A program made the translations under genes and the position numbers. A stretch of 64,000 nt of DNA from Parcubacteria group bacterium GW2011_GWA2_42_14. GTDB taxonomy: Bacteria > Patescibacteriota > Minisyncoccia > Sungbacterales > GWA2-42-14. Shown one piece after another: positions 32,311 to 60,871 of this stretch. Below the pieces are notes generated by a model that ran no database searches, was not told the DNA's origin, and saw only the letters and a program-made list of their open reading frames with translations. The stretch lies in assembly GCA_000998135.1 (NCBI GenBank), contig LCCV01000010.1:9073-73072 (forward strand). Direction: 5' to 3'. Position 1 is the stretch's first letter. Every line of letters begins with the position of its first letter.

Positions 32311-32321
32311 TTTTATAACCT

Positions 32322-42400: not shown

Positions 42401-43612
42401 TTGACTATGAAAAAAAATGATTTTTTACGAACATGGATTGAATTAGATAAAAAAGCGCTCGTGCAAAATATTGGGCAGTTTTTAAAATTTATTCCGGTGC
42501 GTACGCGGTTAATGGCCGTGGTTAAATCAAACGCCTATGGTCATGGCCTCGCGCAAGTTGCAAAGCAACTCGCGGAATTGGGAGTTAAGAATAATGAATT
42601 AGGCGTCCATAATTCAAAATTCATAATTCATAATTCACGTTTATGGTTCGGCGTTGATTCTATTGTTGAGGCCTTGCGGCTTCGCGAAGAAGGCATTAAA
42701 AATTCAATTCTGGTTTTGGGGTCAACTCTGCCGGGGCGTTTTAAGGAAGCTGAAGAAAATAATATCATTTTAACTGTTTCCAATTTTGAGTCACTTGGGG
42801 CGTTAAAGAAACTTAAGAACCCGCCGGAATTTCACATAAAAATTGATACCGGCATGTATCGTCAGGGTTTTTTGCCCGAACAAATCCAAAAACTTCTTAA
42901 ACTTATTAAATTGTATAAGCTTGCGCCGGAGGGAATATATACTCATTTTGCCAGCGCCAAAGACCGCGGTTATCCTACATATACTTTTGAGCAACTAAGA
43001 AAATTTAAACAAGCGATTAAAGAGTTTGAGCGCGCCGGTTTCAGAAAGTTAATTAAACACGCCGCGGCTTCGGGGGGGACTATTTTATTTCCGTCAAGCC
43101 ATCTTGATATGGTTAGGATAGGAATAGGGCTTTATGGCTATTGGCCGGCCCCTGAAACTGAAAAGACGTTTCGGTTTCAGGGAAATCCCAAATCCCAAAG
43201 CCCAAATTCCAAACTTTCTCTAAAACCAGTATTAACGTGGAAAACAATTGTGGGTGAGGTTAAGGAAATCCCAAAAGGATCGCACATCGGGTACGACTTT
43301 ACCGAACGTATCAATCGGAAAACCAAAATCGCCGTACTGCCGATTGGCTATTGGCATGGTTATGACCGCGGCTTGTCGTCCATAGGCGAAGTTTTGCTCC
43401 GAGGACGGCGTAGAAAGATTTTAGGAAGGGTTTCAATGGATATGATTGTTGTTGATGTTACCGATAAGCCATCGGTAAAAGTGGGTAATGAAGCGGTTTT
43501 GCTCGGAAAACAGGGAAAAGATGCAATTTGGGCTGATGAAATCGCTTTGAAAATTGGAACTTCTGCTTATGAAGTATTAACTCGTATAAACCCTCTTATA
43601 GAGAGGAATTAG
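42401..43612 (+). CDS. alr: alanine racemase with two in-frame low-complexity insertions
   Basis: PLP-lysine region AVVKSNAYGHG; C-terminal domain; insert-like tracts NSKFIIHNSR and GNPKSQSPNSKLS. Confidence 0.85.
   Translation: MTMKKNDFLRTWIELDKKALVQNIGQFLKFIPVRTRLMAVVKSNAYGHGLAQVAKQLAELGVKNNELGVHNSKFIIHNSRLWFGVDSIVEALRLREEGIKNSILVLGSTLPGRFKEAEENNIILTVSNFESLGALKKLKNPPEFHIKIDTGMYRQGFLPEQIQKLLKLIKLYKLAPEGIYTHFASAKDRGYPTYTFEQLRKFKQAIKEFERAGFRKLIKHAAASGGTILFPSSHLDMVRIGIGLYGYWPAPETEKTFRFQGNPKSQSPNSKLSLKPVLTWKTIVGEVKEIPKGSHIGYDFTERINRKTKIAVLPIGYWHGYDRGLSSIGEVLLRGRRRKILGRVSMDMIVVDVTDKPSVKVGNEAVLLGKQGKDAIWADEIALKIGTSAYEVLTRINPLIERN
42611..42638. repeat. AATTCAAAATTCATAATTCATAATTCAC repeat inside alr, in frame
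   Basis: Same family as 60367-60437 and others. Confidence 0.6.
43183..43217. repeat. AAATCCCAAATCCCAAAGCCCAAATTCCAAAC repeat inside alr, in frame
   Basis: Same family as 50755-50823. Confidence 0.6.
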
Positions 43613-43739
43613 CCCTTTACACTGTTTTTGAATAAGTAGTGGATTAACTGTGTATATAATTTTTCCTAAAATTTGGTATTATTTGTGATATATGTTTTGG
43701 TCGAATATAGCAATTATTAAGTAAAAAATAAAAATAATT

Positions 43740-44360
43740 ATGATTAAGAATTTTATATCATTTTTAGTCGCGTTTTCGGTTGTGTTTGGCGGAGTAGCGC
43801 CGGTTTTGGCGCAATCGCAGAATCGCCCTTCGTTGCCCAATAAGCCGAAAATAATGGGAACGGCCACGACAACGCCGGCAATGCGCCTTGAGGAAAAACA
43901 AGAAAGAATGGAAGCGAGAATGCAGAAATTGGAAGAAAGGAGAAAACAGATGATTAAGAAATTTTTTGAGAAAATGGTCAGGCGGTTTGAGGCGGCCGTT
44001 AACCGTCTTAAAAAATTGGCTGACCGTATAGATAGCCGGTTGACTAAATTTGCAACCGAAAGGGGTAAGGATGTAGCCGCTCTTAGGGCAAGATTGGCCG
44101 AAGCCAGAGTAAAAATTACGGAAGCCGAAGTGGCTATTAATTCGGCCAAGGCGGGATTGGAAAGCGCCTTAAATTCTGAAACTCCGCGCGAGGCCCTTGA
44201 GGCCGTTCGAAAGTTGGTTGTCGAGGCTCGTGATAAAATAAAAGAAGCGCATAAGGCGTTAGTAAAGGTCGTAACAGAAATCAAAGGAGTATCCGGAGGA
44301 ATTAATTCTGGAAGAATTAATGGTGGTCCAGCCACAACTACTCCGATAATGGTACCGTAA
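43740..44360 (+). CDS. secreted coiled-coil protein, hypothetical
   Basis: Signal peptide plus long Glu/Arg/Lys-rich helices; the overlapping minus ORF is low-complexity antisense. Confidence 0.4.
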   Translation: MIKNFISFLVAFSVVFGGVAPVLAQSQNRPSLPNKPKIMGTATTTPAMRLEEKQERMEARMQKLEERRKQMIKKFFEKMVRRFEAAVNRLKKLADRIDSRLTKFATERGKDVAALRARLAEARVKITEAEVAINSAKAGLESALNSETPREALEAVRKLVVEARDKIKEAHKALVKVVTEIKGVSGGINSGRINGGPATTTPIMVP

Positions 44361-44364
44361 TTTA

Positions 44365-44431
44365 ACCAACAACCAACAACTGACAACCAACAACACGTGT
44401 TATGGGTTGTAAATTGTAGGTTGTAAGTTAA
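44365..44431. repeat. CAACAAC / GTTGTAAGTTGTAAG hairpin element
   Basis: ccaacaaccaacaactgacaaccaacaac...gggttgtaaattgtaggttgtaagtt. Confidence 0.5.
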
Positions 44432-44437
44432 TAAACT

Positions 44438-44776
44438 ATGGATTTTCAACCATCAATTCCGACCGGACCTTCTTTAACTCCGGCAGTAGGCAAAAAATCT
44501 TCTCTGCTTCGGATACTTTTGGTTATAGCGGCCGTTCTTGTGGTATTAGCGCTTTGGGTTTGGTTTTACGGAGGAAGTTTACTGCCCTCACCGAAAGAAA
44601 CTTATAATTCACAGCCGACTATAGGTATTAAGCCGCCGCCGGAACCAGATGTCGCTGCCCTACAAAAGCAAAGCGTTTCTGATGATATTACCGCTATTGA
44701 AAACGATTTGAATGCTACTGACCTTGAAAATCTTGACCTTGAATTGGACGCGATTGATAAAGAGTTTGCGCAGTAA
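44438..44776 (+). CDS. small membrane-anchored protein, hypothetical
   Basis: One TM helix, acidic C-terminus. Confidence 0.4.
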   Translation: MDFQPSIPTGPSLTPAVGKKSSLLRILLVIAAVLVVLALWVWFYGGSLLPSPKETYNSQPTIGIKPPPEPDVAALQKQSVSDDITAIENDLNATDLENLDLELDAIDKEFAQ

Positions 44777-44794
44777 AATTTGTATTAGATCAAA

Positions 44795-44828
44795 AGGCCC
44801 GACCCCCTTTGTGAGGGTCGGGTTTTGG
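44795..44828 (+). terminator. Rho-independent terminator (ggcccgaccccctttgtgagggtcggg + tttt)
   Basis: GC stem plus T-run. Confidence 0.7.
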
Positions 44829-44993
44829 TTTTAGCAATTTTTAGAGTTTAATTTGGCGTTACTATCGGCGTTTAACATGGCTTCTAATTTCTTGAATTAA
44901 AAATAAGCTCCGGCCGGACTGCTTATACGGCCGTTTTTTCTTTTTTGCCTGGCGTTTTTCGGATTTTGGCTTCACCGCTTTCATGTAAATTAT

Positions 44994-45033
44994 TGAAGTC
45001 CGACTTCCCTAATTTAGCGAAGTCGGACTTCGC
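44994..45033. repeat. GAAGTCCGACTTC...GAAGTCGGACTTC palindromic element (intergenic copy)
   Basis: 13-bp arms; the same 13-mer recurs inside uvrA at 50022. Confidence 0.55.
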
Positions 45034-45134
45034 TAGTTTTTCTCGTATGTCACTATTGACATATTTTTTTCATTTTGCTACTTATATTATCGGGGTCTTT
45101 AACGGCTAAAACAATTAAAAACCGAGAAAAAACA

Positions 45135-45371
45135 ATGAAAAAGTGGGGAATAGTGCTTTTGGGATGGTTTTTTATTGCGCTTGGGCCTAACACTGGTGGT
45201 AATAATGTATCAAATGTTTTTACCGTTGTACCAAATTTTAGGACAAAGGCTGACTGTCAGACCGCTGCTTTTTGGGTAAGAAGTACGACCACGGGTGGCC
45301 AATTTTTTATAAATGATCGGGCCTCGGATTGTTACCCCGATGACAAAGAGCCCTTTTATGATATTAAGTAA
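45135..45371 (+). CDS. small secreted or membrane protein, hypothetical
   Basis: MKKWGIVLLGWFFIALG signal-like start. Confidence 0.35.
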   Translation: MKKWGIVLLGWFFIALGPNTGGNNVSNVFTVVPNFRTKADCQTAAFWVRSTTTGGQFFINDRASDCYPDDKEPFYDIK

Positions 45372-45405
45372 CAAGCAAACGGGAAACCATGCGGATGGAA
45401 ATTTT

Positions 45406-46827
45406 TCATCCGTTTTTGAATTTCTTTTCGCGAAGTTTATGATGATATTTTTTCGCGAACCGGTGCGATTCGTCGCGGATTCTTTGAAACAAATGCAAAA
45501 TTTCTTGCGGCTGTTTTTTGAGTTTAATCGGAAACCTCCACCTTTCAATATATAGTTCTTCGTTTTGTTTCGCCAGTGCTGTAATAATTGGAATTTTGAA
45601 TTTTGAATTTATTTGGGGTTTGTGTTTTGGGATTTGGGATTTTAATGCGGCCGTCGCCGCATTTAATTGAGGTTTGCCACCGTCCATAACAATTAAGTCC
45701 GGGTAGATCCATTCGGGATGGTTAAAGCGGCGCGTGATGACTTCGCGCATCATATCAACATCGCTGATTTGATGCACGGTTTTAATTTTAAATTTGCGGT
45801 ATTGGTTTTTATCGGGTGCGTAACTATTTGCTTGTTTGGAAAATACTACCATTGAACTGGTTGCTTCGGTTCCCGAAATGTTGGAGATGTCATATCCTTC
45901 AATTCGCGAAATATTTTTTGCAGTATGCAGGAGTATCTTTAGCCGATTTTCGAGCTCGGCAGAGGTCTGACCTCTCGCGAGGGGTCGGACCTCAAGCGTT
46001 TGCCGATGTTCAAAAATGTTTTTTAATCCAAAAAGCTGGTCGCGCAATACTGCGGCTTTTTCAAATTCCTGATTTTTGGACATCGTGGACATTTTATTTT
46101 TCAGTTCGTGTATCAGTTGTTTCTTTTTTCCCCGGAGTACCGCCATAATGTTTTTAATGTTTGACTGATATTCTAATCGTTGTTTGGAATTTAGAATTTT
46201 GGATTTTGAATTTGTTTCGAATTTCGGATTTAGAATTTTGAATTTGCTATTGTTGTCAAAACAACAATAGCCGGGGCATCTTCCAATCTCCGCGTTTAAG
46301 CAGGGCCTTTTATGCGTTTCTTTGCAAGTACAGTAGGGAAAGATTCGGCGAAGCAATCGTAATGTTATTTTTAAGGCGTTTCCATCAGTAAAGGGCCCGA
46401 TATAACTGATTTCGTGTTTTAATTTTTGGATTTTGTGTTTTGTTTGGGATTTGGGATTTGGATTTTGGTATTTTGGGCGGGTATCTGGTTGATGAGTAAT
46501 TAAGATTTTTGGGAAAATTTCTTTTGTAAAACCAATATAGAAGTAACCCTTATCATCTCTCATTAAAACGTTGTATTTTGGCAAATATTTTTTTATTAGT
46601 TCGGCCTCTTTAATCAGCGCTTCAATTTCTGATGCCGTCTCAAGTATTTGTATTTTTTTTGCCTCTTCAAGAAGTTTTGCAATTTTAGGGATTTTTATCG
46701 TTTGGGAAAAATAAAAAGCCAGACGGTTTTTCAGGTTCCCCGCCTTGCCGATATAAAGAGGTTTTTGATGCCTATCTTTGAAGATATAAACCCCGGGCTT
46801 ATGGGGGATTTTTTTGGGTTTATTCAT
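45406..46827 (-). CDS. uvrC: excinuclease ABC subunit C (short form lacking C-terminal HhH; three in-frame simple-repeat tracts)
   Basis: GIY-YIG (PGVYIFKD...YIGKAGNLKNR), UVR domain, RNaseH-like endonuclease (IEGYDISN; DESHRFA). Confidence 0.82.
   Translation of the reverse strand: MNKPKKIPHKPGVYIFKDRHQKPLYIGKAGNLKNRLAFYFSQTIKIPKIAKLLEEAKKIQILETASEIEALIKEAELIKKYLPKYNVLMRDDKGYFYIGFTKEIFPKILITHQPDTRPKYQNPNPKSQTKHKIQKLKHEISYIGPFTDGNALKITLRLLRRIFPYCTCKETHKRPCLNAEIGRCPGYCCFDNNSKFKILNPKFETNSKSKILNSKQRLEYQSNIKNIMAVLRGKKKQLIHELKNKMSTMSKNQEFEKAAVLRDQLFGLKNIFEHRQTLEVRPLARGQTSAELENRLKILLHTAKNISRIEGYDISNISGTEATSSMVVFSKQANSYAPDKNQYRKFKIKTVHQISDVDMMREVITRRFNHPEWIYPDLIVMDGGKPQLNAATAALKSQIPKHKPQINSKFKIPIITALAKQNEELYIERWRFPIKLKKQPQEILHLFQRIRDESHRFAKKYHHKLREKKFKNG
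45587..45645. repeat. AATTTTGAATTTTGAATTT...GGGATTTGGGATTT repeat inside uvrC
   Basis: Encodes ...SQIPKHKPQINSKFKIP... on the minus strand. Confidence 0.6.
46184..46245. repeat. GAATTTAGAATTTTGGATTTTGAATTT repeat inside uvrC
   Basis: Encodes NSKFKILNPKFETNSKSKILNSKQ. Confidence 0.6.
46418..46475. repeat. TTTGGGATTTGGGATTTGGATTTTGG repeat inside uvrC
   Basis: Encodes KYQNPNPKSQTKHKIQK. Confidence 0.6.
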
Positions 46828-46870
46828 TTTTTCATACTATCATTTTTTTTATTTATTAACACGGCTGTTT

Positions 46871-46982
46871 GCCCCGTTAGAAATCTTTATGAAGCGCATT
46901 TTATTCGGAAAGGCGCAAGATAGAGCCGCTTTGCTTCATGCCGTTAAGCTATAATTTACGTATTGCCGGATTTCTAACGGGG
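46871..46982. repeat. element bounded by inverted repeat CCCCGTTAGAAATC / GATTTCTAACGGGG
   Basis: Related elements at 56836-56950 and 53927-54030. Confidence 0.5.
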
Positions 46983-47114
46983 TAAGACGTTTTCGCTTTT
47001 TGATGTACTGAAAACTTTAGGCCAACGCCGGACCTCTAACCAGGTTTGCTTTTAGCTGACAAGGAAGGTACTTTTAAAGCAGTTATTTTCCAACAAAATA
47101 TAGAGAGGGTGGCG

Positions 47115-48356
47115 ATGCCGCGTTTTAGATATGTGATAGCGTTGGGGCTGGCGGTTTTATTGCTTGTTTTTGCCCTTGTTTTCAGCATTCTTGGCCGCGT
47201 TCGTTACGGCGATTTCTATGAAACAGCGGAAGTAATGAGCATAATTGAGAATAATTATGTTGATAAGGTTGATATTAAAAAATGCCAGGAAAAAATTTTG
47301 CAATCGGGCCTTCAGGATTGTCTTGATAAGCATTCTTATTATTATAGCGCTGACGATCTTAAAGCGGTTAAATCTTTAGATAGCGCCCCATTTGTCGGCA
47401 TCGGCCTACAGGTAAATAAAAAGGATGATTATATTCATGTGGTTTCGGTTTTAGAAAACTCGCCCGCGCAAAGAGTCGGAATTATTCCTGACGATTTAAT
47501 TGTCGCGGTAAACGGCGTTTCTACAAAAAATATGTCGCCCGAGGATGCCACTAATAAAATCAGGGGCAAGTCCGGAGAAAAAGTTGTTTTAACCATTCAG
47601 CGCGGACAGAAAAAACAGAAAGATTTTATTCTAGTTAGGGAAAAAATTGAACGGTTTTACGTGAAGCCGTCGTTTATAACGCCGGAAATCGGTTATATAA
47701 GAATTACTTCGTTTGAACAGCTATCCTCCCTTGAACTTTATTCATCTTTTTACAGCCTTGGGATTTTGAGCGATTTTTCCAGCAAAGATTTTACCGGCAA
47801 TAAAAGCGCAAGAGGAATAATTATTGACTTGAGGCGTAATCCCGGAGGGTTTCTCGGTGAAGTGCTGAGTATGCTTGATTTCTTTTCGCCGGACAAAGGC
47901 AGAACGGTGTTTTCGGCCAAGGGACTCCATGTAAATGAAAAATTTACAACCGGCATCAAGGGATTTTTTGACAATCTGCCGATTGTTGTCTTGATTGATG
48001 CTAATTCGGCTTCGGCCGCGGAAGTTATGGCCGGAGTTCTTAAAATTTGGGGGCATGCGGTTGTCGGTGAAAAAAGTTACGGCAAAGGAACGGTTCAGGA
48101 ATTTCCCATTCGGCTTTCATCCGGTTCGGCGCTTCGTTTGACTGTTGCGCGTTATTTTTTGGGAGAGCAAGAAGTCGCCGTTGATGGCATTGGAATTTCG
48201 CCCGACCACGAAGTAAAATGGAAAAAATCGGAAAACCAGAGCGAAGAAGATTTTGCCGCTGAATTTTTCCCTAATTTTGGCAATCCGGAAAAAGATCCGC
48301 AGCTGAAAAAAGCGGTTGAGGTTTTGAAAGAACAAATGAAAAAGCCGAGGAATTAA
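47115..48356 (+). CDS. ctpA: carboxyl-terminal processing protease (S41) with PDZ domain
   Basis: N-terminal TM, PDZ (GIGLQV...VVSVLENSPAQRVGIIPDDLIVAVNG), S41 catalytic region (GGFL...ANSASAAE). Confidence 0.85.
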   Translation: MPRFRYVIALGLAVLLLVFALVFSILGRVRYGDFYETAEVMSIIENNYVDKVDIKKCQEKILQSGLQDCLDKHSYYYSADDLKAVKSLDSAPFVGIGLQVNKKDDYIHVVSVLENSPAQRVGIIPDDLIVAVNGVSTKNMSPEDATNKIRGKSGEKVVLTIQRGQKKQKDFILVREKIERFYVKPSFITPEIGYIRITSFEQLSSLELYSSFYSLGILSDFSSKDFTGNKSARGIIIDLRRNPGGFLGEVLSMLDFFSPDKGRTVFSAKGLHVNEKFTTGIKGFFDNLPIVVLIDANSASAAEVMAGVLKIWGHAVVGEKSYGKGTVQEFPIRLSSGSALRLTVARYFLGEQEVAVDGIGISPDHEVKWKKSENQSEEDFAAEFFPNFGNPEKDPQLKKAVEVLKEQMKKPRN

Positions 48357-48370
48357 CTTCGGTTTTTTGC

Positions 48371-48399
48371 TTGACTCAAATTAAAAAAAATGATATATT
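48371..48399 (+). promoter_or_regulatory. sigma70-like promoter TTGACT-17nt-TATATT
   Basis: Near-consensus -35 and -10 with 17-nt spacing upstream of ATG 48416. Confidence 0.4.
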
Positions 48400-48415
48400 G
48401 ATACAAGTTCATTTA

Positions 48416-48820
48416 ATGGGAAAGAAGGGGTTGTTGGATATGCGAGGAATGGAAGATCGGTTTAGGGATTTATATCAGTCTCTCTTAAAAAGGATGCGTC
48501 TGATTCGAGTACAAAACCCAGAATTACGTGGCGCTATTGAGGTTGTTATTGCGCACAATAATGTTAGTTCACTTGTTCTAAGCGAATCGCCTTATTGGGA
48601 GATTAGGTATTTAAATCACCAATACTGCATTAGTGGTGTATCCCTTGACGGAGTTGTTAAAGAATATGCTCGTATTCAGGATATTGAATACCGTGTTCTA
48701 CTAAGTTGTTATTTATTACAGGGCCCGTTTGGCAAAGAAACGCAACATGAGTACTTTGTTAGGGTGTGCGACGTTTTAAATATATTAAAGAGAATAGGCT
48801 GGAACTTTTGGATGGTCTGA
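48416..48820 (+). CDS. hypothetical protein (134 aa)
   Basis: ORF; start moved downstream of the promoter. Confidence 0.4.
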   Translation: MGKKGLLDMRGMEDRFRDLYQSLLKRMRLIRVQNPELRGAIEVVIAHNNVSSLVLSESPYWEIRYLNHQYCISGVSLDGVVKEYARIQDIEYRVLLSCYLLQGPFGKETQHEYFVRVCDVLNILKRIGWNFWMV

Positions 48821-48872
48821 TTTCTAAAATGGAAGTCGCCCTTCAAAAACTTAATGAAGGTTAGGCTTTTTT

Positions 48873-48900
48873 AACCGAAGCGTTATGCTTCGGTTTTTCT
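48873..48900 (+). terminator. Rho-independent terminator (aaccgaagcgttatgcttcggtt + T-run)
   Basis: Perfect hairpin. Confidence 0.7.
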
Positions 48901-48938
48901 ATTGATTTCTCTCTTTTTTTGTTATAGTATATATAACT

Positions 48939-51818
48939 ATGCCTAATAGCGATGTCATAAAAATCCGTGGAGCTCGGGTCCATAATCTCAAGAATATTGA
49001 TGTGGATATTCCTAAAAATAAACTGGTGGTAATTACCGGCCTTTCCGGTTCCGGGAAATCATCTTTGGCATTTGATACGATTTATGCCGAGGCCGAACGC
49101 AGATTTGTTGAGTCGCTTTCCAGTTATGCCCGTCAGTTTTTGGGAGTGCAGGATAAACCGGATGTGGAAAAAATGGAGGGTTTAAGTCCGGCAATTTCCA
49201 TTGATCAAAAATCTGTTTCCAAAAATCCGCGCTCAACCGTAGGCACTATTACGGAGATTTATGATTATCTCCGTATTTTATTTGCCCGCATCGGGAAACC
49301 TTTTTGCCCGCAGTGCGGAAAGCCGGTTGGAAAACAAACCGTTGACCAGATTGTAGACAGGATTAGGCAATTTAAATCCGGGCAGGAGATTTTGATTTTA
49401 GCCCCGCTTGTATCGGGCAAAAAAGGGGAACATCGTTTAATTTTAGAAGAAGTTGAAAGAGGAGGTTTTTTAAAAGTCCGGCTGGACGGAGAATTTATGC
49501 CGATTGAAGAAGCAGAGGACAAAATGCTTGATAAAAAGAAAAAACATTTTATTGAAGTTGTCGTGGACAGGTTTTTATTGAATCGGGATATAGAACGTTC
49601 CCGTATGGCTGATTCTGTGGAAACAGCCCTTAAGGTTGGTAAGGGAATATTGGTTGTTCAGGCGGGAAGTCAGGATTATTTCTTTTCAGAAAAATTCGCA
49701 TGTATTGATTGCGGAATTGATTTGCCCGATATTGAACCGAGAATTTTCTCTTTTAACAGTCCTTATGGAGCGTGCTCTGAATGTACCGGTTTGGGGTCGC
49801 AATTGGAAGTTGACCCGGAACTTGTTTTGCCCAATACGCGCCTGACTCTTGGTGAAGGCGCGATAAGGCCGTGGGCTTCGGCGTCGCATCGCGTAGGAAG
49901 GCAGTCATGGTATTGGTGGCTACTTACCGACTTGGCTGAAAGGCATAAGTTTTCTTTAAATACATCGGTTAAAGAGTTGTCAAAAGATGTTATTGATTTG
50001 ATTTTGTACGGAGAGGAGCGTCGAAGTCCGACTTCCGCGGGAAGTCGTACTTCAGAAAATTCGTTTGAAGGCGTGATTCCTAATCTTAAGCGAAGATGGA
50101 AAGAGACCGATTCCGATTTTACGCGGGCCGAGATTGAAAAATATATGCTTATAAAAAAGTGTCCTGTTTGCGAGGGCAGGCGATTGCGGCGGGAAACATT
50201 GGCCGTGAAAATTTTGGATAAAAATATTGCCGATATTTCTGTTATGTCTATTGGGGAAGCAAGAATATTCTTGAGTGTATCAATGTATCAATATATTAAA
50301 ACATCAAAACGTCTGCAAACCATAGCCGAGCCGCTGGTTAAGGAAATTTTGAAGCGTTTGGAATTTTTAATGGACGTGGGATTGGAATATCTTACTATTA
50401 ATCGGGAATCAACATCGCTTTCAGGAGGAGAAGCGCAGCGAATTCGGCTCGCGACGCAAATCGGTTCACAATTAACGGGAATATTATACATTCTTGATGA
50501 GCCGTCTATTGGTCTTCATCAGCGCGACCAGGAACGCCTGATTAAAACCTTGAAGGATTTGCGCGATTTGGGAAACACGGTTATTGTGGTGGAACATGAC
50601 GCGCAGACAATTCGTGAGGCCGATTGGGTAATTGATTTGGGCCCGGGAGCGGGGAAGCATGGCGGCGAAATTATATTTGAAGGAACGCCGAAAACTTTAC
50701 TAAAAGTTAAAACTTTGACAGGGGAATATCTCTCGGGAAGGAAGAAAATTGATATCAAAAATCCAAAAATCCCAAATCCCAAATCCCAAATCCCAAATAA
50801 AACACAAAGCACAAAATCCAAATCACAAACCTATTTAACTATTAAAGGAGCGAAAGAGCATAACCTTAAAAATATTGATGTTAAAATTCCTCTTGGAAAA
50901 TTTGTGGCGGTTTCCGGTGTCTCCGGTTCCGGAAAGTCATCTTTGATTAATGATATTTTGGCGCGTGCGCTTTTGGTGAAATTTTATGACGCGCATTTGT
51001 ATCCGGGCGAGCATAAACAGGTTACGGGAACGGAAAATATTGATAAAGTTGTGGTGGTGGACCAGTCGCCGATTGGCAGAACTCCGCGTTCTAACCCAGC
51101 AACTTATACCGGCGCTTTTTCTCATATCCGCGCTCTTTTTGCCAATTTGCCGGAATCACGCGCTCGCGGATTTGAGCCGGGACGTTTCAGTTTTAACGTC
51201 AAAGGGGGCAGGTGCGAGGTTTGCGAGGGCCAGGGAGTTAAAAAAATTGAAATGTTTTTTCTGCCGGATGTATATGTTGAATGCGAAGAGTGCAAGGGGA
51301 AACGGTATAATCGCGAGGCCTTGTCGGTGGAATATAGCGGTTTAAATATTTCTGAAATTCTTAACCAAACCATTGAAGAATCGCTGCCGCTTTTTAAAAA
51401 TATTCCGGCCGTTGAACGAATTTTGAAAGTTCTTTCGGATGTGGGGCTCGGCTATATGCGTCTGGGACAGTCGGCAACTACTTTGTCGGGAGGTGAAGCC
51501 CAGCGGATTAAACTTGCGTCAGAACTTTCCCGAAAAGACACCGGCAAAACTTTATATATTCTTGATGAGCCGACAACAGGATTGCATTTTGACGATATTC
51601 GCAAACTTCTTACGATTTTGCGGGCACTCGTAGATAAGGGCAACAGCGTTTTAATAATTGAGCATAATCTTGATGTATTACGAAACGCGGATTGGATTAT
51701 TGATTTAGGGCCGGAAGGAGGCGATAAGGGCGGAGAAATTGTTGCTGAAGGAATACCTGAAGAAGTTATAAAAGAGAAAAAATCATATACCGGTCAGTGG
51801 CTGAAAAATGATTTTTAA
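48939..51818 (+). CDS. uvrA: excinuclease ABC subunit A
   Basis: Two ABC ATPase modules ([10 protein letters not shown]; [10 protein letters not shown]; LSGGEAQR x2) and zinc-finger CxxC pairs. Confidence 0.96.
50022..50054. repeat. CGAAGTCCGACTTCCGCGGGAAGTCGTACTTCAG palindromic element inside uvrA, in frame
   Basis: Encodes [13 protein letters not shown] in a variable linker; the 13-mer is shared with 44994-45033. Confidence 0.55.
50755..50823. repeat. AAAAATCCAAAAATCCCAAATCCCAAATCCCAAAT...AAATCCAAATCACAAA repeat inside uvrA, in frame
   Basis: Encodes [24 protein letters not shown] at the linker before the second ABC module (inference that it is unusually long there; no alignment run). Confidence 0.65.
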
Positions 51819-51822
51819 AAAT

Positions 51823-51865: not shown

Positions 51866-51885
51866 ATCACAGGTTTTTTTATTCC

Positions 51886-51919
51886 CCCTATCTTCTGCTT
51901 AAGCAGAAGATAGGGGGAA
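51886..51919. terminator. perfect 34-bp palindrome CCCCCTATCTTCTGCTTAAGCAGAAGATAGGGGG
   Basis: Downstream of uvrA. Confidence 0.6.
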
Positions 51920-51994
51920 TTTGATTCCTATTGCAATTTTTTTGAGGAAATGATACATATTGAGAGCATCTTTGAAAAGTGAAAGGAAAAAACA

Positions 51995-52414: not shown

Positions 52415-52447
52415 AACCGCGTAAAATTTACGCGGTGTTTTTTTATT
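52414..52447. terminator. Rho-independent terminator (aaccgcgtaaaatttacgcggt + T7)
   Basis: Hairpin plus T-run. Confidence 0.7.
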
Positions 52448-52471
52448 CGCGGTGTTCGCATGTAATTCGCA

Positions 52472-52996: not shown

Positions 52997-53008
52997 ATTA
53001 ATCTCCGC

Positions 53009-53857: not shown

Positions 53858-53926
53858 CGGTTGTCCCTGAATAATATGTCAAAGAAACTAGTTTATAGGT
53901 AGCGTATTTTGGGAAATTTTGCAAAC

Positions 53927-54030
53927 CTCGTTAGGTCCCCGTTTAGGAGTTTTTTTATTTGATTTTAAAAAAATTTTCCTTGAATCTTTCGTCTTTGGTT
54001 TTCTGACGGAGTTTTTAGGATCTAACGGGG
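53927..54030. repeat. CCCCGTTTAGGAG / TAGGATCTAACGGGG element
   Basis: Third member of the CCCCGTTAG-bounded family. Confidence 0.4.
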
Positions 54031-54059
54031 CAAAAAGAAAAAGCCCCCGCGCGTTTAAG

Positions 54060-54350
54060 CTAAAGGGGCTTCCAAATGCAATGCATTTGTTTGGCAATGA
54101 TTTTTTTCTTTTTCCAGTTGTCAAATTGCATTTTTGACACGGCTATTAAAACAGGAAATAGTTGGTATTGTTCGGTTATATCAACGGTAATAAGTTCTCC
54201 TGTTTTTGCGTCAGAAAATGAGTATCCAAGAATGACTTCTCCGTCTTTTCCGGCAAGAAGACCCTTGGCTGTTTCTTTTTTTTGAAACACCACTTCCGCA
54301 GTTGTTTTAGCGGCGCCGGCAAAGTTATTAAAGGACCATACGCATGACAT
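54060..54350 (-). CDS. hypothetical protein (96 aa)
   Basis: ORF with a downstream hairpin at 54040-54075. Confidence 0.35.
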   Translation of the reverse strand: MSCVWSFNNFAGAAKTTAEVVFQKKETAKGLLAGKDGEVILGYSFSDAKTGELITVDITEQYQLFPVLIAVSKMQFDNWKKKKIIAKQMHCIWKPL

Positions 54351-54438
54351 GTTTGTTTACCTCCTTGTTATTATTGTATCATATAAAAGATATGTTTGTC
54401 AAGTTGACATGGTTCTGGCTTATCGCATATATTTTAAT

Positions 54439-54465
54439 TTAGCAGTCGAATGATAAGAGTGCTAA
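54439..54465. promoter_or_regulatory. CIRCE element (HrcA operator) TTAGCAGTC-N9-GAGTGCTAA
   Basis: One mismatch to consensus TTAGCACTC-N9-GAGTGCTAA; ~80 bp upstream of groES. Confidence 0.7.
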
Positions 54466-54508
54466 TTTGAGTTTTTAGGCGGTTAGGTTTTTAGCTATTA
54501 TGTGTTTC

Positions 54509-54533
54509 CTAAAAGCTAAAAGCTAAAAGCTAA
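54509..54533. repeat. tandem octamer (AAAAGCTA)x3
   Basis: Direct reading. Confidence 0.8.
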
Positions 54534-54546
54534 AAGCTCTTAAAAA

Positions 54547-54845
54547 ATGTCTAATTTAAAGATAAAACCGCTCGGCGATCGGGTTCTGATAGAGCCCATG
54601 GACCAGGAAAAGGAAAAAACCAAGTCCGGCATCTATCTTCCCGAAACCGCCTCTAAAGAAAGGCCGGAAAGGGGCAGGGTTGTTGCCGTGGGCCCCGGCA
54701 AAATGCTTGATTCCGGAAAATTATCGCCCATGAATGTAAAAGAGGGGGATACGGTTCTTTTTACCAAATACGGACCGAATGAAATAAAGGTCGAGGAGAA
54801 AGAATACCTTATAGCAAGAGAGGAGGATATATTGGCAATCCTTGA

Positions 54846-54849
<4 letters not shown>
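54547..54849 (+). CDS. groES: co-chaperonin GroES
   Basis: [11 protein letters not shown]...GIYLPETA...GRVVAVGPG. Confidence 0.96.
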
Positions 54850-56600
<1,751 letters not shown>

Positions 56601-56654
56601 ATATTTGCCTGCGAGAACAAGCCCGCATGGCGCAGTTCGAGCAGATGCAAATAT

Positions 56655-56775
56655 TTAACCCCGCACCAAGCTTAATGAATTTCTGTTGTTAGGGGTTGTG
56701 TAAGCCGAAAGGCGATTCCGTGGAATATCTTTTGCATAATTCTGCCAAATTTCGAGCTTTGGTGCTGGGGTTAGC
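56655..56775. repeat. ~120-nt element bounded by AACCCCGCACCAAGC / GCTTTGGTGCTGGGGTT
   Basis: Same terminal motif as the mreB-leader element 31008-31123. Confidence 0.45.
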
Positions 56776-56808
56776 TCGTTTTTATGGTTGATGAAACGAA
56801 TAAAAAAT

Positions 56809-56833
56809 TGCCGGTTAACTCCGGCAGTTTTTA
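56809..56833 (+). terminator. hairpin ccggttaactccgg + T-run
   Basis: Short stem plus T5. Confidence 0.45.
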
Positions 56834-56835
56834 TT

Positions 56836-56950
56836 CACCCCGTTAGAGGTTTGAAGTTGGGTAGCCGTTTAAAATAGGACGTAAAGCGAAAGCGGCTTAC
56901 GCCTTATATTCATGCCTGAATATGGCCATCTTTAAACCTCTAACGGGGTT
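56836..56950. repeat. element bounded by CACCCCGTTAGAGGTTTG / AAACCTCTAACGGGGTT
   Basis: 14-bp terminal inverted repeats; inner stem gtaaagcgaaagcggcttac. Confidence 0.5.
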
Positions 56951-57012
56951 GACATTGTTTTATATTTGCCGTACATATTAAGTACTGTGGAAAATAACGC
57001 AAGGAGAGAGAA

Positions 57013-57435
57013 ATGTTTGAAAAACCGACGCAGGGTGTTGAAAGATGGATTGATGAAAAAGGCCAAACCATTATCGTAAAATCGTTCTTTAGCAAGTTTT
57101 ATATAGACCCGGAAATGGAAAGATTAAGCAGGGATTATAATATCTGGGAATGCGACGGTAAAATACGTTATTCAAGTTTGGGTAAGGGGGAGAAAGAGCA
57201 TCTTGCGGCCCGTATCCTTGGATTGGTCAGAGTAGTAAGCGATAGTGACGGCCCCCGTTTGGTTGGTATTAAAAAGAATGAGTTAGAGATGTTTGCCGGA
57301 AGATCATACGAAGATTGGTTCATTAACGGATTTGTTGAATACGGCTTTTTAAGGGAGAAATTGATTAAAGGAGAATTGGTGCTCTTTCCTACGGAAAAAC
57401 TTCTGGAAAATCAGCGTATCAGCAAAAGAAAATAA
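57013..57435 (+). CDS. hypothetical protein (140 aa)
   Basis: ORF with SD-like GGAGAGAGAAATG. Confidence 0.45.
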   Translation: MFEKPTQGVERWIDEKGQTIIVKSFFSKFYIDPEMERLSRDYNIWECDGKIRYSSLGKGEKEHLAARILGLVRVVSDSDGPRLVGIKKNELEMFAGRSYEDWFINGFVEYGFLREKLIKGELVLFPTEKLLENQRISKRK

Positions 57436-57474
57436 TTTTTATACAAGGCCTTATTTACAAGGCCTTTTTATAAT

Positions 57475-57504
57475 AAAAAAAGACGCGAAATGCGTCTTAT
57501 TTTT
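57475..57504. terminator. bidirectional terminator agacgcgaaatgcgtct + T-run
   Basis: Perfect hairpin; similar hairpin at 57838-57860. Confidence 0.6.
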
Positions 57505-57793
57505 CTTGATTTTTTTCCTGATTCTTTTTTACTTCATCGGCAATGTCTTTTATGAGCCGCTGTCGCCGTTCCTCATGCAGTTTTCTCATTTCGTTGAGAT
57601 GAATTTTTAACATTTCAAGTGTAAAGATAGACAGTGCTGGTCCAAGGATGAGCACCATCGGCCCTACCGGAAGGATATATGAGGCAATGCTTACGGCAAT
57701 ACCAACTCCTGCGTACGCACTGTAACGTTTACCAAACCAGATTCCTGCGATAGCAGCAAGAACTAATGTTATTATGATTCTGCCGATTTCCAT
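57497..57793 (-). CDS. small membrane protein (98 aa), hypothetical
   Basis: Two TM helices plus basic C-terminus. Confidence 0.45.
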   Translation of the reverse strand: MEIGRIIITLVLAAIAGIWFGKRYSAYAGVGIAVSIASYILPVGPMVLILGPALSIFTLEMLKIHLNEMRKLHEERRQRLIKDIADEVKKNQEKNQEK

Positions 57794-58299
57794 AAAATTA
57801 CCTCTTTTGCGTTTTTAAGCAACTATCCTAAGTTTATATGATTAAAGACGCGAAACGCGCCTTATTCTGAATTGATAATTGCGAGAAGAGCAACCCAAGT
57901 AGCTAAAAGAAAAAGTTGTAGTCCGCCAAGTAGCCACGCCTCCATACCAAAAAGAACCAGATTTTGCCATAATCCTTCGGGCGAGAAGAGTTTATAGGCG
58001 AATAGCCACAGCCAGGTTGGAATAAGCGCTAAGGCAAGAGCAATAAGGCCAAAGAGGGTTTTGAATATTGGTATTTCCTTCAGTTTTTAACGAACTGGCA
58101 TTGTAGTATAGCAGGTTATTTTCGTGCGTCAAGGTTTGCTATATACAGATAGTTTTATATAATTAAAATATAGAAAATAGGTTTTATTCTTCGAGCGGAA
58201 TCGAGAAGTTTTACTTCGATAAACTCAGTATAGGCATTATGGTAAAGTTCTCAACAGAGCCAGCTTAGCTGGTCAGGCTCGAACACTAATAAGTTTTGG

Positions 58300-58375
58300 G
58301 GTTAAAAAGTCATTCTGAGGCAACAGCCGAAGAATCTTGTTTTTTTGAGATTCTTCACTTCGTTCAGAATGACTC
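58300..58375. repeat. GTCATTCTGAGG...GAAGAATC...GATTCTTC...TTCAGAATGACTC hairpin element
   Basis: Inverted duplication of the GTCATTCTGAG/GAAGAATC unit. Confidence 0.5.
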
Positions 58376-58383
58376 AATAAGTT

Positions 58384-58938
58384 ATGTGGTTGCTTTATTA
58401 TATTTTTATTGGCGTTCCGATTGCGGTTATCGGGTGGCTGGTCATAATTTACAATAGTTTGATAAGCGGTAAACAGCAGATTCAAGAGGCCTGGTCGGAT
58501 ATTGAAGTCCAGTTGAAGCGCCGGTATGATTTGATTCCGAATGTCATTGAAACCGTTAAAGGATACGCGTCGCATGAGCGGAATCTTTTTGAAAAAGTAA
58601 CGCAAGCCAGAACCGCGGCTATGGGCGCAAAAAGCGCTCAAGAACATGCTCAATCGGAAAATATGCTTTCCAATACCCTGAAAACTCTTTTTGCGGTTGC
58701 GGAAAATTATCCCGATCTGAAAGCCAATGTTAATTTTCTTGATTTGCAAAGAGAATTGGCCGATACGGAAAATAAAATCCAGGCATCCCGCAGGTTTTAT
58801 AACGGCAATGTGCGCGATTTCAACATTAAGATACAATCTTTTCCCTCAAATTTTGTCGCCCGCGCCTTTGGTTTCAAAGAAGCGGAATTTTTTGATATGA
58901 ATGAGAGAGAAAAGGCCGTTCCAACCGTAAAATTTTAA
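58384..58938 (+). CDS. lemA: LemA family protein
   Basis: N-terminal TM and conserved LemA core (EAWSDIEVQLKRRYDLIPN...RRFYN). Confidence 0.85.
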   Translation: MWLLYYIFIGVPIAVIGWLVIIYNSLISGKQQIQEAWSDIEVQLKRRYDLIPNVIETVKGYASHERNLFEKVTQARTAAMGAKSAQEHAQSENMLSNTLKTLFAVAENYPDLKANVNFLDLQRELADTENKIQASRRFYNGNVRDFNIKIQSFPSNFVARAFGFKEAEFFDMNEREKAVPTVKF

Positions 58939-58989
58939 ATCGCCATCTCTGAATTCTAAATAAATTTCAATTGCAATTTTTTAAGTGAA

Positions 58990-59044
58990 TTAAGCGAGTT
59001 AAGCCAGTTAAGCTTAATTTACTTAATTCACTTAACTTGCTTAG
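58990..59044. repeat. hairpin TTAAGTGAATTAAG...CTTAATTCACTTAA
   Basis: 14-bp perfect arms with a 27-nt loop containing TTAAGC repeats. Confidence 0.5.
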
Positions 59045-59311
59045 TAAGCTTATTTAAAAACGGGGCTTGCTTTTTTCACAGTTTTTGTTATAATAGAGTT
59101 AATACGGTAGTTAATGCCGAAAAATGGGTATTTTCCAGGAGGGAATCCCAGGAAGGCGAAAAACCCTGCTTTTTCTGTAATCTTGCGGGGAGGTCGAACT
59201 ACTGCAATATCGCGAATTATCACAAATTGATTGCATCGCTAATCAAACACGAATACTCTTTTTAGAGATAATTTGAGACGGGATTCGAGATTGATTAGTG
59301 ATTGAGCATAT

Positions 59312-59635
59312 ATGGCAAGAGCTGAACACGCAGACGCGGAATTTTTGGAATATGTCGTAAAGTCCCTTGTTGACAATCCCGACGCCGTAAAGGTGGATAG
59401 GAAAGTTGATGAGATGGGAGTTCTTTTGACTCTCAAGGTTGGTCCCGAAAGTATGGGGCAGGTAATCGGGCGAAACGGCAATACCGCTAAAGCTATCCGA
59501 ACCTTGCTTCGAGTTGTGGGTTTGAAAAACAGCGCCCGCGTTAACTTGAAGATTGAAGAGCCGGAAGGCGGAAGAGGTCCGCGAATGGAACGAAGAACAA
59601 GCGTTGACGAAGTTGTTGATGACTTGAGACTTTAA
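59312..59635 (+). CDS. khpA: KH-domain RNA-binding protein (KhpA/YlqC-like)
   Basis: KH motif VIGRNGNTAKAIRTLL; usual neighbourhood with trmD. Confidence 0.7.
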   Translation: MARAEHADAEFLEYVVKSLVDNPDAVKVDRKVDEMGVLLTLKVGPESMGQVIGRNGNTAKAIRTLLRVVGLKNSARVNLKIEEPEGGRGPRMERRTSVDEVVDDLRL

Positions 59636-59660
59636 TCGAAATTTAAACATAAAATCCCCT

Positions 59661-59690
59661 GAGTTTATCAAAGGGGATTTTATGTTTGCG
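59661..59690 (+). terminator. Rho-independent terminator (aaatcccctgagtttatcaaaggggatttt)
   Basis: Perfect stem plus T-run. Confidence 0.7.
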
Positions 59691-59761
59691 GCCATTGGTG
59701 TTAAAATTAAAAGGCGCAACTATGCGCCAAATGAAAAGTTTTTTATGCGTTTTGATATTTT

Positions 59762-59968
59762 TTACAATTTTTCCTCGAATATGATATGCTCTCCCCAGTA
59801 GTGATATATCACCGAGGAGTGCTCTATCCCCTCCCATCTGATTTCAATGGTTGGCTCGCCTCTGTCCATGAAAAGTTTTGTAATTATGCCGATATTGCCA
59901 AGCACTGAACGTACTTTTTGTCCGACGCGAAGTTTTTCCCAGGGAACATCGCTGAGGAATGTTGGCAT
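59762..59968 (-). CDS. hypothetical small protein (68 aa)
   Basis: ORF only. Confidence 0.35.
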   Translation of the reverse strand: MPTFLSDVPWEKLRVGQKVRSVLGNIGIITKLFMDRGEPTIEIRWEGIEHSSVIYHYWGEHIIFEEKL

Positions 59969-60142
59969 GGCTTTTCTTCTTCTTTTTTTAAGGCAACTGA
60001 TAACATGGTATCAATGGTATTAACATTTGTCAATATACGTTTTGATATTATTATCCCGATTTCTCAAAATTTTTAGAGAAATTGAGGACTCTCGATTTTG
60101 TAGTTCCGCGCGGCGAAAACAAAATCGGGGCATTTTTCCACT

Positions 60143-60871
60143 ATGAAGTTCGATATTATAACTATATTTCCCGAAGCATTTGAATCATATTTAAATGCCT
60201 CAATGTTTAAACGCGCCCAAGAGAAAAAAATCGCGGATATTCGCGTTCACGATTTAAGAAAGTTCGCGCAAGATAAACACAAAAAAGTGGATGACCGGCC
60301 GTATGGCGGAGGTCCGGGAATGGTGCTCAAAATTGAGTCCATTGTAAGAGCCATCGAGTCAATTTTGAGAAATTCTAAATTCAAAATCCTAAATTCTGAA
60401 CAAATTCAAAATTCAAAATTCAAAATTCAAAATTCACGGACTAAAATTATTATTTTTTCCGCTTCAGGAAAACAGTTTGACGCAAAAATGGCGGATGATT
60501 TTGCAAAAAAATACAACCACATCATTATGATTTGCGGCCACTATGAAGGCGTTGACGAGCGAGTTAAGCGTGTGATTCACGATTCAGGATTCATGGTTCA
60601 AGAACTGTCCGTCGGTCCTTACGTTTTAACCGGTGGCGAGCTTCCGGCCATGATAGTAATTGATGCCGTTTCTCGGCATATACCCGGGTTTTTGGGCAAA
60701 GCCGAATCTTTGGAAGAAAAACGCTATGGCATTGGCGTGCCGGTATATACCAGGCCGGAAATATTTAAGCATAAGGGCAAGAAATTCACAGTGCCAAAAG
60801 TACTTTTATCAGGCGCTCATAAAAAGATTGCCGCCTGGCGCGAATCTCGCGTTAGGCGAGCCTCGCCTTGA
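60143..60871 (+). CDS. trmD: tRNA (guanine37-N1)-methyltransferase with in-frame low-complexity insertion
   Basis: SPOUT/TrmD motifs (DDRPYGGGPGMVL; GHYEGVDERV; LTGGELPAM). Confidence 0.9.
   Translation: MKFDIITIFPEAFESYLNASMFKRAQEKKIADIRVHDLRKFAQDKHKKVDDRPYGGGPGMVLKIESIVRAIESILRNSKFKILNSEQIQNSKFKIQNSRTKIIIFSASGKQFDAKMADDFAKKYNHIIMICGHYEGVDERVKRVIHDSGFMVQELSVGPYVLTGGELPAMIVIDAVSRHIPGFLGKAESLEEKRYGIGVPVYTRPEIFKHKGKKFTVPKVLLSGAHKKIAAWRESRVRRASP
60367..60437. repeat. AATTCTAAATTCAAAATCCTAAATTC...(AAATTCAAA)x4 repeat inside trmD, in frame
   Basis: Encodes RNSKFKILNSEQIQNSKFKIQNSR inside the TrmD fold (inference that this tract is an insertion; no alignment run). Confidence 0.65.

Follow-up and report, generated by a model that had tools for sequence, protein, structure and literature searches.

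Tandem arrays of seven-nucleotide (heptanucleotide) units lie within four housekeeping genes, alr, uvrC, uvrA and trmD, of a groundwater Parcubacterium belonging to the candidate phyla radiation (CPR), and there they are translated in frame as loop insertions. The window analysed here is a stretch of 64,000 nucleotides (contig LCCV01000010.1, positions 9,073 to 73,072) from a metagenome-assembled genome (MAG) of Candidatus Sungbacteria that is also deposited as Parcubacteria GW2011_GWA2_42_14; coordinates below are those of the window. With a probability of about 0.7, the coding tracts are simple sequence repeats (SSRs) that stem from slippage and have been filtered by selection inside genes. 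An initial annotation of the window had listed eight repeat sites, and repeat tracts were found at all of them: seven are in frame, in alr (two), uvrC (three), uvrA and trmD, and one is a hairpin in the mreB/mreC spacer. That annotation had offered slippage-generated SSRs tolerated by selection as one of two possible origins, and this proposal is supported by the head-to-tail arrangement of the 7-nt units, the enrichment of period 7 alone and a natural allele that differs by one unit, with tract orientation and unit content fitting a filter acting on coding sequence.

Heptanucleotide tracts within genes

Host open reading frames (ORFs) and the mreB and mreC neighbours were identified by Pfam, and tandem repeats by Tandem Repeats Finder (TRF). 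The genes and their tracts are as follows.

alr, 42401-43612, plus strand: alanine racemase (Pfam)
alr tract 1, 42603-42648, plus strand: about four units CATAATT/AAATTCA, translated as VHNSKFIIHNS
alr tract 2, 43178-43217, plus strand: about four units AAATCCC/AAAGCCC/AAATTCC, then AAAC, translated as GNPKSQSPNSK
uvrC, 45406-46827, minus strand: identified by Pfam
uvrC tract 1, 46416-46476, minus strand: AAAATCC (AAATCCC)2 AAAC AAAACAC AAAATCC ..., translated as QNPNPKSQTKHKIQK
uvrC tract 2, 46179-46251, minus strand: two 32-nt modules, each of four heptamers and AAAC, translated as NSKFKILNPKFETNSKSKILNSKQ
uvrC tract 3, 45581-45646, minus strand: in the sense direction (AAATCCC)2 AAAACAC AAACCCC AAAT (AAATTCA)3, translated as KSQIPKHKPQINSKFKIP
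uvrA, 48939-51818, plus strand: identified by Pfam
uvrA tract, 50752-50829, plus strand: perfect (AAATCCC)4.6, then AAAT and (AAAACAC)-type units
trmD, 60143-60871, plus strand: identified by Pfam
trmD tract 1, 60366-60443, plus strand: four units AAATTCN/AAATCCT, GAAC, five perfect AAATTCA units, translated as NSKFKILNSEQIQNSKFKIQNS
trmD tract 2, 60571-60604, plus strand: GATTCAC GATTCAG GATTCAT (unit GATTCAN), translated as IHDSGFM; missing from the initial annotation

At each of the eight originally listed sites TRF recovered period 7 with 2.7 to 10 copies, the 7-nt units being arranged head to tail. Period 7 accounted for 23 tandem tracts of the window in a self-match scan, whereas Markov shuffles gave about 0.6, and each of the other periods from 4 to 13 had only 0 to 3. 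A stricter scan retained 10 tracts at period 7, three at the harmonic of 14 and one at period 9, with none at the remaining periods between 2 and 15 and none in shuffles. The sequence AAATYCMAAATYCM, when up to two mismatches are allowed, has 65 matches in the window against 34.7 +/- 6.1 expected, and those with 0 or 1 mismatch lie almost exclusively inside the tracts first listed. Most period-7 tracts of the window are intergenic and are built of units other than AAATCCC and AAATTCA; the further units are AATCATG, GTTTCAA, GACAAGA, CATGTCT, AGCGGTT, CCTAAAC, AACCAAC, GTTGTAA, CTAAAAG, CATGTAG and TTACGAA. The original description of a single family is right only in part: the AAATCCC and AAATTCA tracts have a common layout, but these tracts are part of a wider, genome-wide set of heptamer arrays. 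After merging, coding sequence holds nine period-7 tracts, or 1.7 per 10 kb, distributed over 5 ORFs out of about 71; the 9.8 kb of non-coding DNA has 13 to 15, or about 14 per 10 kb. Control periods are close to zero. This roughly eight-fold depletion from coding sequence is as expected from selection against frame-breaking repeats.

Conserved domains match on either side of each tract, which means that the reading frame is kept, and codon-level translation reproduced the peptides that had been reported; for alr tract 1 the tract itself stands while its unit is corrected to a CATAATT/AAATTCA-like one. Sequence alignment to PDB chains gives the coding tracts 5 to 20 residues more than solved homologues have. 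Alr tract 1 lies within an 18-residue insertion relative to solved alanine racemases, between ‘GV’ and ‘FGV’, and alr tract 2 is a 13- to 15-residue insertion, seen as a gap in the PDB alignments, that precedes the C-terminal domain. In UvrC, tract 1 is positioned between the GIY-YIG domain and the Cys-rich region, and tract 3 adds about 10 residues in a loop of the RNase H-like endonuclease domain. The uvrA tract lengthens the linker that precedes the second ATP-binding domain by about 14 to 15 residues. In TrmD, tract 1 forms a loop insertion of about 20 residues after helix 64-76, and tract 2 adds five residues after ‘DERV’. The AlphaFold model of TrmD, which is only moderate overall (mean predicted local distance difference test score, pLDDT, of 69), assigns residues 79-97, which separate helix 64-76 from strand 100-111, to a coil whose pLDDT is below 50. 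The alignments to solved structures and this modelled coil confirm the suggestion that the tracts are insertions of 14 to 20 residues in surface linkers.

Within genes the tracts are direct arrays, A/C-rich with 0 to 5 G, and 30 to 75 nt in length, and because of this composition they are unable to self-pair. The second origin proposed initially, that of elements resembling Rickettsia palindromic elements (RPEs) spreading in frame, is not supported for these tracts: in-frame insertion at surface positions of conserved proteins is indeed observed and the layout is common (about four units, AAAY and a second array), yet length and unit content change from tract to tract. In all seven A/C-rich coding tracts, including the three minus-strand uvrC tracts, the A-rich strand is the sense strand; as this is so on both genome strands, orientation follows the gene and not the chromosome. 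Since 7 and 3 have no common factor, the frame moves from one unit to the next, so that a run of three units is translated once in each frame and yields a seven-residue peptide repeat, KSQIPNP from AAATCCC and KFKIQNS from AAATTCA. The complement units TGAATTT and AATTATG contain TGA, and the complement GGGATTT would encode GIWDLGF. Units that contain a stop in the sense direction (AATCATG, CCTAAAC, CTAAAAG, CATGTAG and AGCGGTT) occur only between genes in the window. The unit TTACGAA, which has no stop, is intergenic in the window but is translated as ELRITN[KR] in UvrC orthologues. The (AAATCCC)4.6 array of uvrA has four G3 runs on its complementary strand and so represents a putative G-quadruplex motif; the G3 runs are present in part in uvrC tract 1 and alr tract 2 and not in the AAATTCA arrays (trmD, uvrC tract 2 and alr tract 1).

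Orthologous sites and related genomes

Alignment of TrmD, UvrC and Alr with Parcubacteria relatives shows that each site is hypervariable in length, ranging from 0 to about 40 residues, and that many of the orthologue tracts are peptides with a seven-residue period derived from differing units (NPKSQIL, NSKSKTL, IKNQKLK, ITNHESR, FTIHDSR, ELRITNR, NLQPTTY and SSQLPAP). At the site of trmD tract 2, orthologues carry ENLKFKIEN, QNSKFKIQN or SDFGFRISD. The second alr site holds an unrelated tract in P0250, an Alr that is 87% identical, and uvrC tract 2 is missing from the closest UvrC orthologue (P0130, 69% identical). The same low-complexity tracts at the same positions in orthologues of unrelated lineages had been named as a finding that would refute the initial proposal, and this has come about in part: such tracts are carried by Parcubacteria relatives but not by solved structures from other organisms. 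The occurrence of low-complexity tracts at the same sites in relatives identifies these sites as long-lived hot spots and not as recent private insertions.

In the nucleotide sequence of four sister genomes, the linker tract of trmD consists of a first array with a conserved third unit AAATCCT, an AAAC break and a second array, and because this is the layout of the window the tract has been inherited. The second array comprises five perfect units in the window versus two to three in the sister genomes, and that of the window is a recent expansion. Judging from the aligned sequences, the tract sites are long-lived and their contents turn over.

Tract density around trmD was surveyed by scanning genomes with a TrmD profile, the relatives being at most 55% identical. 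The window has 3.6 tracts per 10 kb, compared with 2.6 for a Calothrix control and 2.4 to 4.8 for a few other loci from CPR and Chloroflexota; most genomes among the matches listed have 0. The loci with a richness in period 7 comparable to that of the window (L039, L049 and L012) are from Candidatus Leptofilum (Chloroflexota) and a few other CPR genomes. The (AAATCCC) unit is widespread in environmental contigs: a metagenome scan for (AAATCCC)3 placed 26 arrays within ORFs in the sense direction and 15 in the antisense direction; 28 others lay outside ORFs and 18 at the edges of contigs. These figures are a poor gauge of strand bias because ORF calls are unreliable in high-GC contigs. Unrelated metagenome contigs also encode in-frame NPKSQIP arrays, in ORFs resembling TrmD and UvrC (L092, 1405-1432; L103, 2419-2456).

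A one-unit uvrC allele in nature

Within the 90%-identity cluster of UvrC, a member of 536 residues is the same as the protein of the window up to ‘...PQINSKF’ and diverges thereafter. The two contigs that carry this frameshift allele (L004 and L005) come from separate assemblies and match the window at all internal positions over 4.8 to 5.4 kb, the sole indel being the deletion of one AAATTCA unit at 45604-45610, in uvrC tract 3. With the unit lost, the frame changes and the protein is deprived of its last 60-odd residues, among them the conserved stretch ‘IRDESHRFA’, which aligns with solved UvrC endonuclease domains and which, as the T. maritima UvrC structure is reported to show, carries a catalytic histidine. 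To judge from the residues lost, the allele is probably defective in 5′ incision. In-frame uvrC is present on 13 contigs and the frameshift on 2. As the same deletion appears in two assemblies, single-unit change happens in nature, and the indel polymorphism that had been proposed as something to look for across metagenome populations is thereby found, in one array. A clustering of substitutions within arrays was also considered and discarded, the mismatches between population contigs and the window all lying at contig ends.

Intergenic hairpins

The intergenic arrays of the window are commonly organised as hairpins, of which the following are the principal examples.

mreB, 31145-32206, plus strand: identified by Pfam
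mreB/mreC spacer hairpin, 32207-32321: left arm A/C-rich, AAATCCA-type; right arm G/T-rich, TTTGGAT-type
mreC, 32322-33137, plus strand: identified by Pfam
rpsD-rpoA spacer hairpin, 4031-4127: (GACAAGA)4 ... (CATGTYT)4, z -8.2
Relatives of the rpsD-rpoA hairpin: 9190-9235, 15315-15350 and 54848-54918
(AACCAAC)4 ... (GTTGTAA)4 hairpin, 44362-44431: relatives at 16484-16549 and 36013-36043
Other intercistronic hairpins with heptamer arms: 2152-2218, 2339-2399, 2793-2855, 11208-11276 and 33815-33896

In the usual design two arrays of slightly different units, the second of them inverted, flank a short loop; each arm has about four units, and in every 7 nt six bases are paired and one is mismatched. 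The hairpin that had been recognised between mreB and mreC (32215-32310) was recovered with a folding energy of -23 to -30 kcal/mol (z -3.1 and -3.6); z-scores of the hairpins lie at about -3 to -8, with one strand of the 2150-2222 element at only -1.7. Dispersed families are present, GACAAGA/CATGTYT at four loci, AACCAAC/GTTGTRA at three and AATCATG/GTTTCAA at three. The hairpins occupy spacers of conserved operons (rpsM-rpsK-rpsD-rpoA, murA-mreB, holB to frr, and groES-groEL), and as they are inside such operons they are unlikely to be strong terminators. Specificity for one RNA strand by way of G-U pairs was considered and rejected, since folding of both strands gave no consistent preference. 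Rfam returned no family match at gathering threshold across the 64 kb, with no tRNA, rRNA or riboswitch family detected.

Comparison of window positions 2339-2855 with a sister genome (L089) shows heptamer-arm hairpins in the same rpsM/rpsK spacers (4919-4939, 5331-5428 and 5895-5977 of that contig). Their units (GCAAAGC...CTTAGCG and GAGTTTT...CTCATAA) differ from those of the window, and 6 of every 7 positions in the arms are complementary. At these spacers position and structure are conserved and sequence is replaced.

Two further features of the intergenic arrays may be recorded. Between the murA-like and mreB-like genes, 11241-11274 is a perfect (CCCTAAA) array of 4.9 copies, which is the plant-type telomere unit, and it pairs as a weak hairpin with (AGCGGTT)4 at 11208-11237. 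Every unit of the arrays at 4096-4122, 15321-15350, 2830-2855 and 54889-54918 contains CATG; these arrays stand just upstream of rpoA, a BNR-repeat gene, rpsK and groEL, and present candidate ATG starts in all three frames.

Origin of the arrays

If the coding tracts are slippage-derived SSRs, they would be the gene-borne share of genome-wide short arrays, typically of about four units or about 30 nt. Slipped-strand mispairing would create the arrays and alter their length in 7-nt steps, and because 7 is not a multiple of 3 most length changes inside genes would be destructive. Selection would then keep arrays in loops that tolerate extra residues, keep units stop-free in all three frames, keep the A/C-rich strand as sense, giving a hydrophilic peptide rich in K/N/S/P/Q, and keep the net array length in frame. 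Over longer times array turnover would leave orthologous Parcubacteria loops with differing units and lengths. The hallmarks of SSRs are present, with tandem 7-nt units, a period-specific excess and whole-unit variation (one unit fewer in uvrC, five units versus two to three in trmD). Periodicity, enrichment, insertion status, hot-spot conservation and the one-unit natural indel are observed; that slippage generates the arrays, and that selection lies behind their bias in orientation and unit, is what we infer.

Several points weigh against this explanation. The selection filter is deduced from few independent coding tracts, and a single array is polymorphic, the others being identical in all population contigs examined. 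Slippage gives no reason for the recurrence of a few identical units at many loci, nor does it explain the layout shared by six tracts. Simple slippage does not predict the preference for about four units, seen in the window and in metagenome contigs, and uvrC tract 2 matches the layout of trmD tract 1 even though it is missing from the closest UvrC orthologue.

The shared layout (about four units, a 4-nt AAA[C/T] break and a second array) is that of six tracts in four genes, and the higher-order period of 32 nt found by TRF in uvrC tract 2 (2.1 copies) is the same arrangement. It hints at copying between loci. A dispersed, possibly mobile 32-nt module (about four heptamers, AAAY and a second array) would be a repeat-based analogue of RPEs, copied by transposition, gene conversion or template switching and surviving only at permissive in-frame sites; such a module is conceivable, though on balance unlikely. 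Besides the six tracts, the sister-genome trmD genes have the layout, the peptides of trmD tract 1 and uvrC tract 2 both start with NSKFKILN despite the absence of the latter from P0130, the same unit pairs recur in hairpin families at three to four loci, and (AAATCCC)n arrays are found in many unrelated environmental contigs, where 43 of 81 arrays have four units in a search that demanded only three. Beyond their AAATCCC runs, uvrC tract 1, the uvrA tract and uvrC tract 3 share tails of AAAACACAAA...ATCCAAA (p about 0.005 to 0.03 against shuffles), p-values that are too optimistic because the shuffle null is lenient and ignores periodicity. The AAAC break, however, occurs in only 3 of the 81 metagenome arrays, tract lengths vary, the coding copies are not palindromic, and the trmD tract was inherited vertically with its gene. 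The polymorphism observed is a single-unit change and not the gain or loss of an element, and no transposase or RAYT-like gene (REP-associated tyrosine transposase, REP denoting repetitive extragenic palindromic sequences) was found among the 36 window ORFs scanned. Reading of the tracts, which was not a systematic search, brought no terminal inverted repeats or target-site duplications to light. A larger scheme, in which a self-propagating heptamer module settles both in spacers, as hairpins, and in loops of essential proteins, core genes such as uvrC become mutator-like switches in an uncultured bacterium with a streamlined genome, and a dedicated mechanism underlies the cross-phylum preference for about four units, appears quite improbable.

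The frameshift allele raises the question of contingency loci, in which reversible 7-nt slippage would toggle genes such as uvrC and maintain a reservoir of repair-deficient, mutator-like cells. The structural prerequisites exist in uvrC, where the ORF contains a unit whose length is not divisible by 3 and natural alleles are in different frames, 2 of 15 contigs from a strain that is otherwise identical having the frameshift as their consensus; a coding heptanucleotide repeat that controls expression is known from neuO of E. coli K1 (PMC13001214). The arrays are nevertheless short (three to five units) and interrupted, and they are situated mid-gene or near the 3′ end of housekeeping genes, not at the 5′ end of genes for surface or variable functions. 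As only one array varies, and like arrays reside in alr and trmD, in which an off state would be harmful or lethal, we regard contingency loci as very unlikely in general, and adaptive switching of alr and trmD seems unlikely.

A selected protein feature would make the DNA periodicity incidental: flexible, lysine-rich disordered loops might serve, for example, in nucleic-acid contact. Low-complexity tracts do persist at the same sites in many Parcubacteria, their peptides are hydrophilic and lysine-rich, and three of the four proteins bind nucleic acids. Alr does not, and its 87%-identical relative has an unrelated tract; sequence and length at the sites are hypervariable, to the point that some orthologues have no tract, and the same periodicity dominates non-coding DNA, which places a DNA process first. 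We consider selection for the loops themselves highly improbable as the origin of the tracts.

Assembly or sequencing artefacts, to which low-complexity repeats are prone and whose disappearance on re-assembly the initial annotation had held out as a possibility, can be set aside, because the same tracts are present in independent assemblies of several samples (several ENA assemblies as well as two NCBI MAGs), tracts of this kind are also seen in orthologues from many studies, and collapse would be unlikely for arrays shorter than the k-mer given in contig names (k141).

Palindromic and other small repeats

A number of repeats other than the heptamer tracts described above were noted. GC-rich palindromes of the type GAAGTCCGACTTC...GAAGTCGGACTTC are located at 44987-45039 (intergenic), 45962-45993 (uvrC) and about 50018-50056 (uvrA). 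The motif RGTCSGACY has four matches in the window against 0.52 expected, and the uvrC and uvrA copies of the palindrome are translated. These palindromes were considered as a second class of in-frame insert and rejected as such, the uvrA copy occupying a variable loop that is of similar length in solved UvrA and hence being no clear insertion. In a sister-genome trmD (L087, about 2888-2930), a 42-nt GC-rich palindromic insert, CCCGATGGCAAAGCCATCGAGGATCCTCGACAAGGTCGGGAC, translated as PMAKPSRILDKVGT, is placed inside a heptamer array, and other TrmD relatives have differing GC-rich-looking inserts at other sites (SRLPGNRGS..., KGGSLPDRQAGASG... and VRGGLARAGMAKG...). The GC-rich TrmD inserts may be a separate class of small in-frame elements.

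Directly before the AAATCCC array of alr tract 2, positions 43151-43182 form a small in-frame inverted repeat, CCCTGAAAC ... GTTTCAGGG, whose GTTTCRG units recall the right arm found in AATCATG/GTTTCAA hairpins. In a gene for a BNR/sortilin-like repeat protein, 15573-15605 reads ATTTTGG ATTTTGC ATTTTAC and is translated as ILDFAFY; it is the sole coding period-7 tract with a T-rich sense strand, and being short it may be due to chance. After lemA, 58981-59052 is a palindromic array of period 9, TTAAGCGAG ... CTTAATTTA, the sole clear non-heptamer tandem structure in the window.

Implications for CPR genomes

In the small genomes of CPR bacteria, core genes are considered to be tightly constrained. 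Microsatellites with a frame-breaking 7-nt unit in alr, uvrA, uvrC and trmD amount to a hazard that these cells tolerate. This hazard has long been kept at the same loops across the lineage, and in one natural uvrC allele it has been realised. In practical terms the tracts split profile alignments and inflate apparent protein divergence, and they create frameshift ‘pseudogenes’ in MAGs that may be real population variants. The arrays also mark sites at which these enzymes accept extra residues.

Comparison with known systems

RPEs are said to be palindromic elements of about 100 to 150 bp with family consensus sequences. As with RPEs, repeats are here tolerated in frame at surface positions of conserved genes with function kept; unlike RPEs, the coding tracts are non-palindromic tandem heptamers of variable length, and of the tracts first listed only the intergenic copy folds.

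Imperfect hairpins that are dispersed as families among extragenic spacers also characterise REP sequences and REPINs, a likeness that concerns the intergenic hairpins only. REPINs have a conserved 16-mer core and a linked RAYT transposase (Bertels and Rainey 2011, PMC3116915), whereas the hairpins described here have arms of tandem heptamers, mismatched once in every 7 nt, and the scan of 36 window ORFs yielded no match to a Y1 transposase or RAYT.

The neuO gene of E. coli K1, as described in PMC13001214, likewise has a 7-nt unit within its ORF, a frameshift on gain or loss of one unit and natural alleles that differ in unit number. It is an accessory, phage-borne gene for surface modification, in contrast to the housekeeping genes considered here, whose arrays are short, interrupted and internal.

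Heptamers are reported to be the most over-represented class of long SSR in many bacteria, and polymerase slippage has been proposed as their source (Mrazek 2007, as relayed in PMC4679880 and PMC4692102). The tracts of the window agree with that account in their tandem 7-nt units, in an excess specific to period 7, in a patchy occurrence across phyla and in the proposed slippage. As relayed in the same two papers, Mrazek 2007 found that unit lengths in multiples of 3 are favoured in coding regions; the present arrays differ from the SSRs so described in that 7-nt units are located inside conserved core enzymes, at several sites per gene and in a CPR host.

Among cyanobacterial heptamers, G-rich GGGGA(T/C)T is reported from Nostoc, and GGGAATC from Xanthomonas (Rehm et al. 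2015, PMC4692102). GGGATTT, the complement of AAATCCC, is a very similar unit. Further similarities are the preference for about four units (in Nostoc and Xanthomonas), the inverted pairs, the location between co-oriented ORFs, the variation of length and sequence between close relatives and, in the uvrA array with its complementary G3 runs, a predicted fit to the G-quadruplex motif. Those repeats are mainly intergenic and under-represented in coding sequence, and the host here is a Parcubacterium; moreover, AAATTCA, GACAAGA, AACCAAC and others cannot form quadruplexes, yet they have the same layout of about four units.

Direct repeats of TAACTGA have been described from marine Beggiatoaceae, cyanobacteria and Bacteroidetes (MacGregor 2015, PMC4679880). 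They too are short arrays, of 2 to 6 copies, found mostly in spacers by start codons, including those of ribosomal-protein operons, and a minority are translated, in the stop-free orientation. One unit dominates there, whereas many coexist here, and the translated copies there are at termini or in hypothetical proteins, whereas here they occupy internal loops of conserved enzymes.

Among the literature searched, no paper was found that ties heptamer or SSR arrays to CPR/Patescibacteria or to in-frame sites in housekeeping genes. The closest systems are the heptamer repeats of cyanobacteria and Xanthomonas and those of Beggiatoaceae, from which the present arrays differ in the CPR host, in the many coexisting units and in having several arrays inside core enzymes, within internal loops. 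The initial annotation described only part of this phenomenon, and at its core it is mechanistically ordinary. If the shared layout and the preference for about four units reflect a specific mechanism, CPR bacteria, cyanobacteria, Xanthomonas and Beggiatoaceae would be joined by one poorly understood repeat phenomenon.

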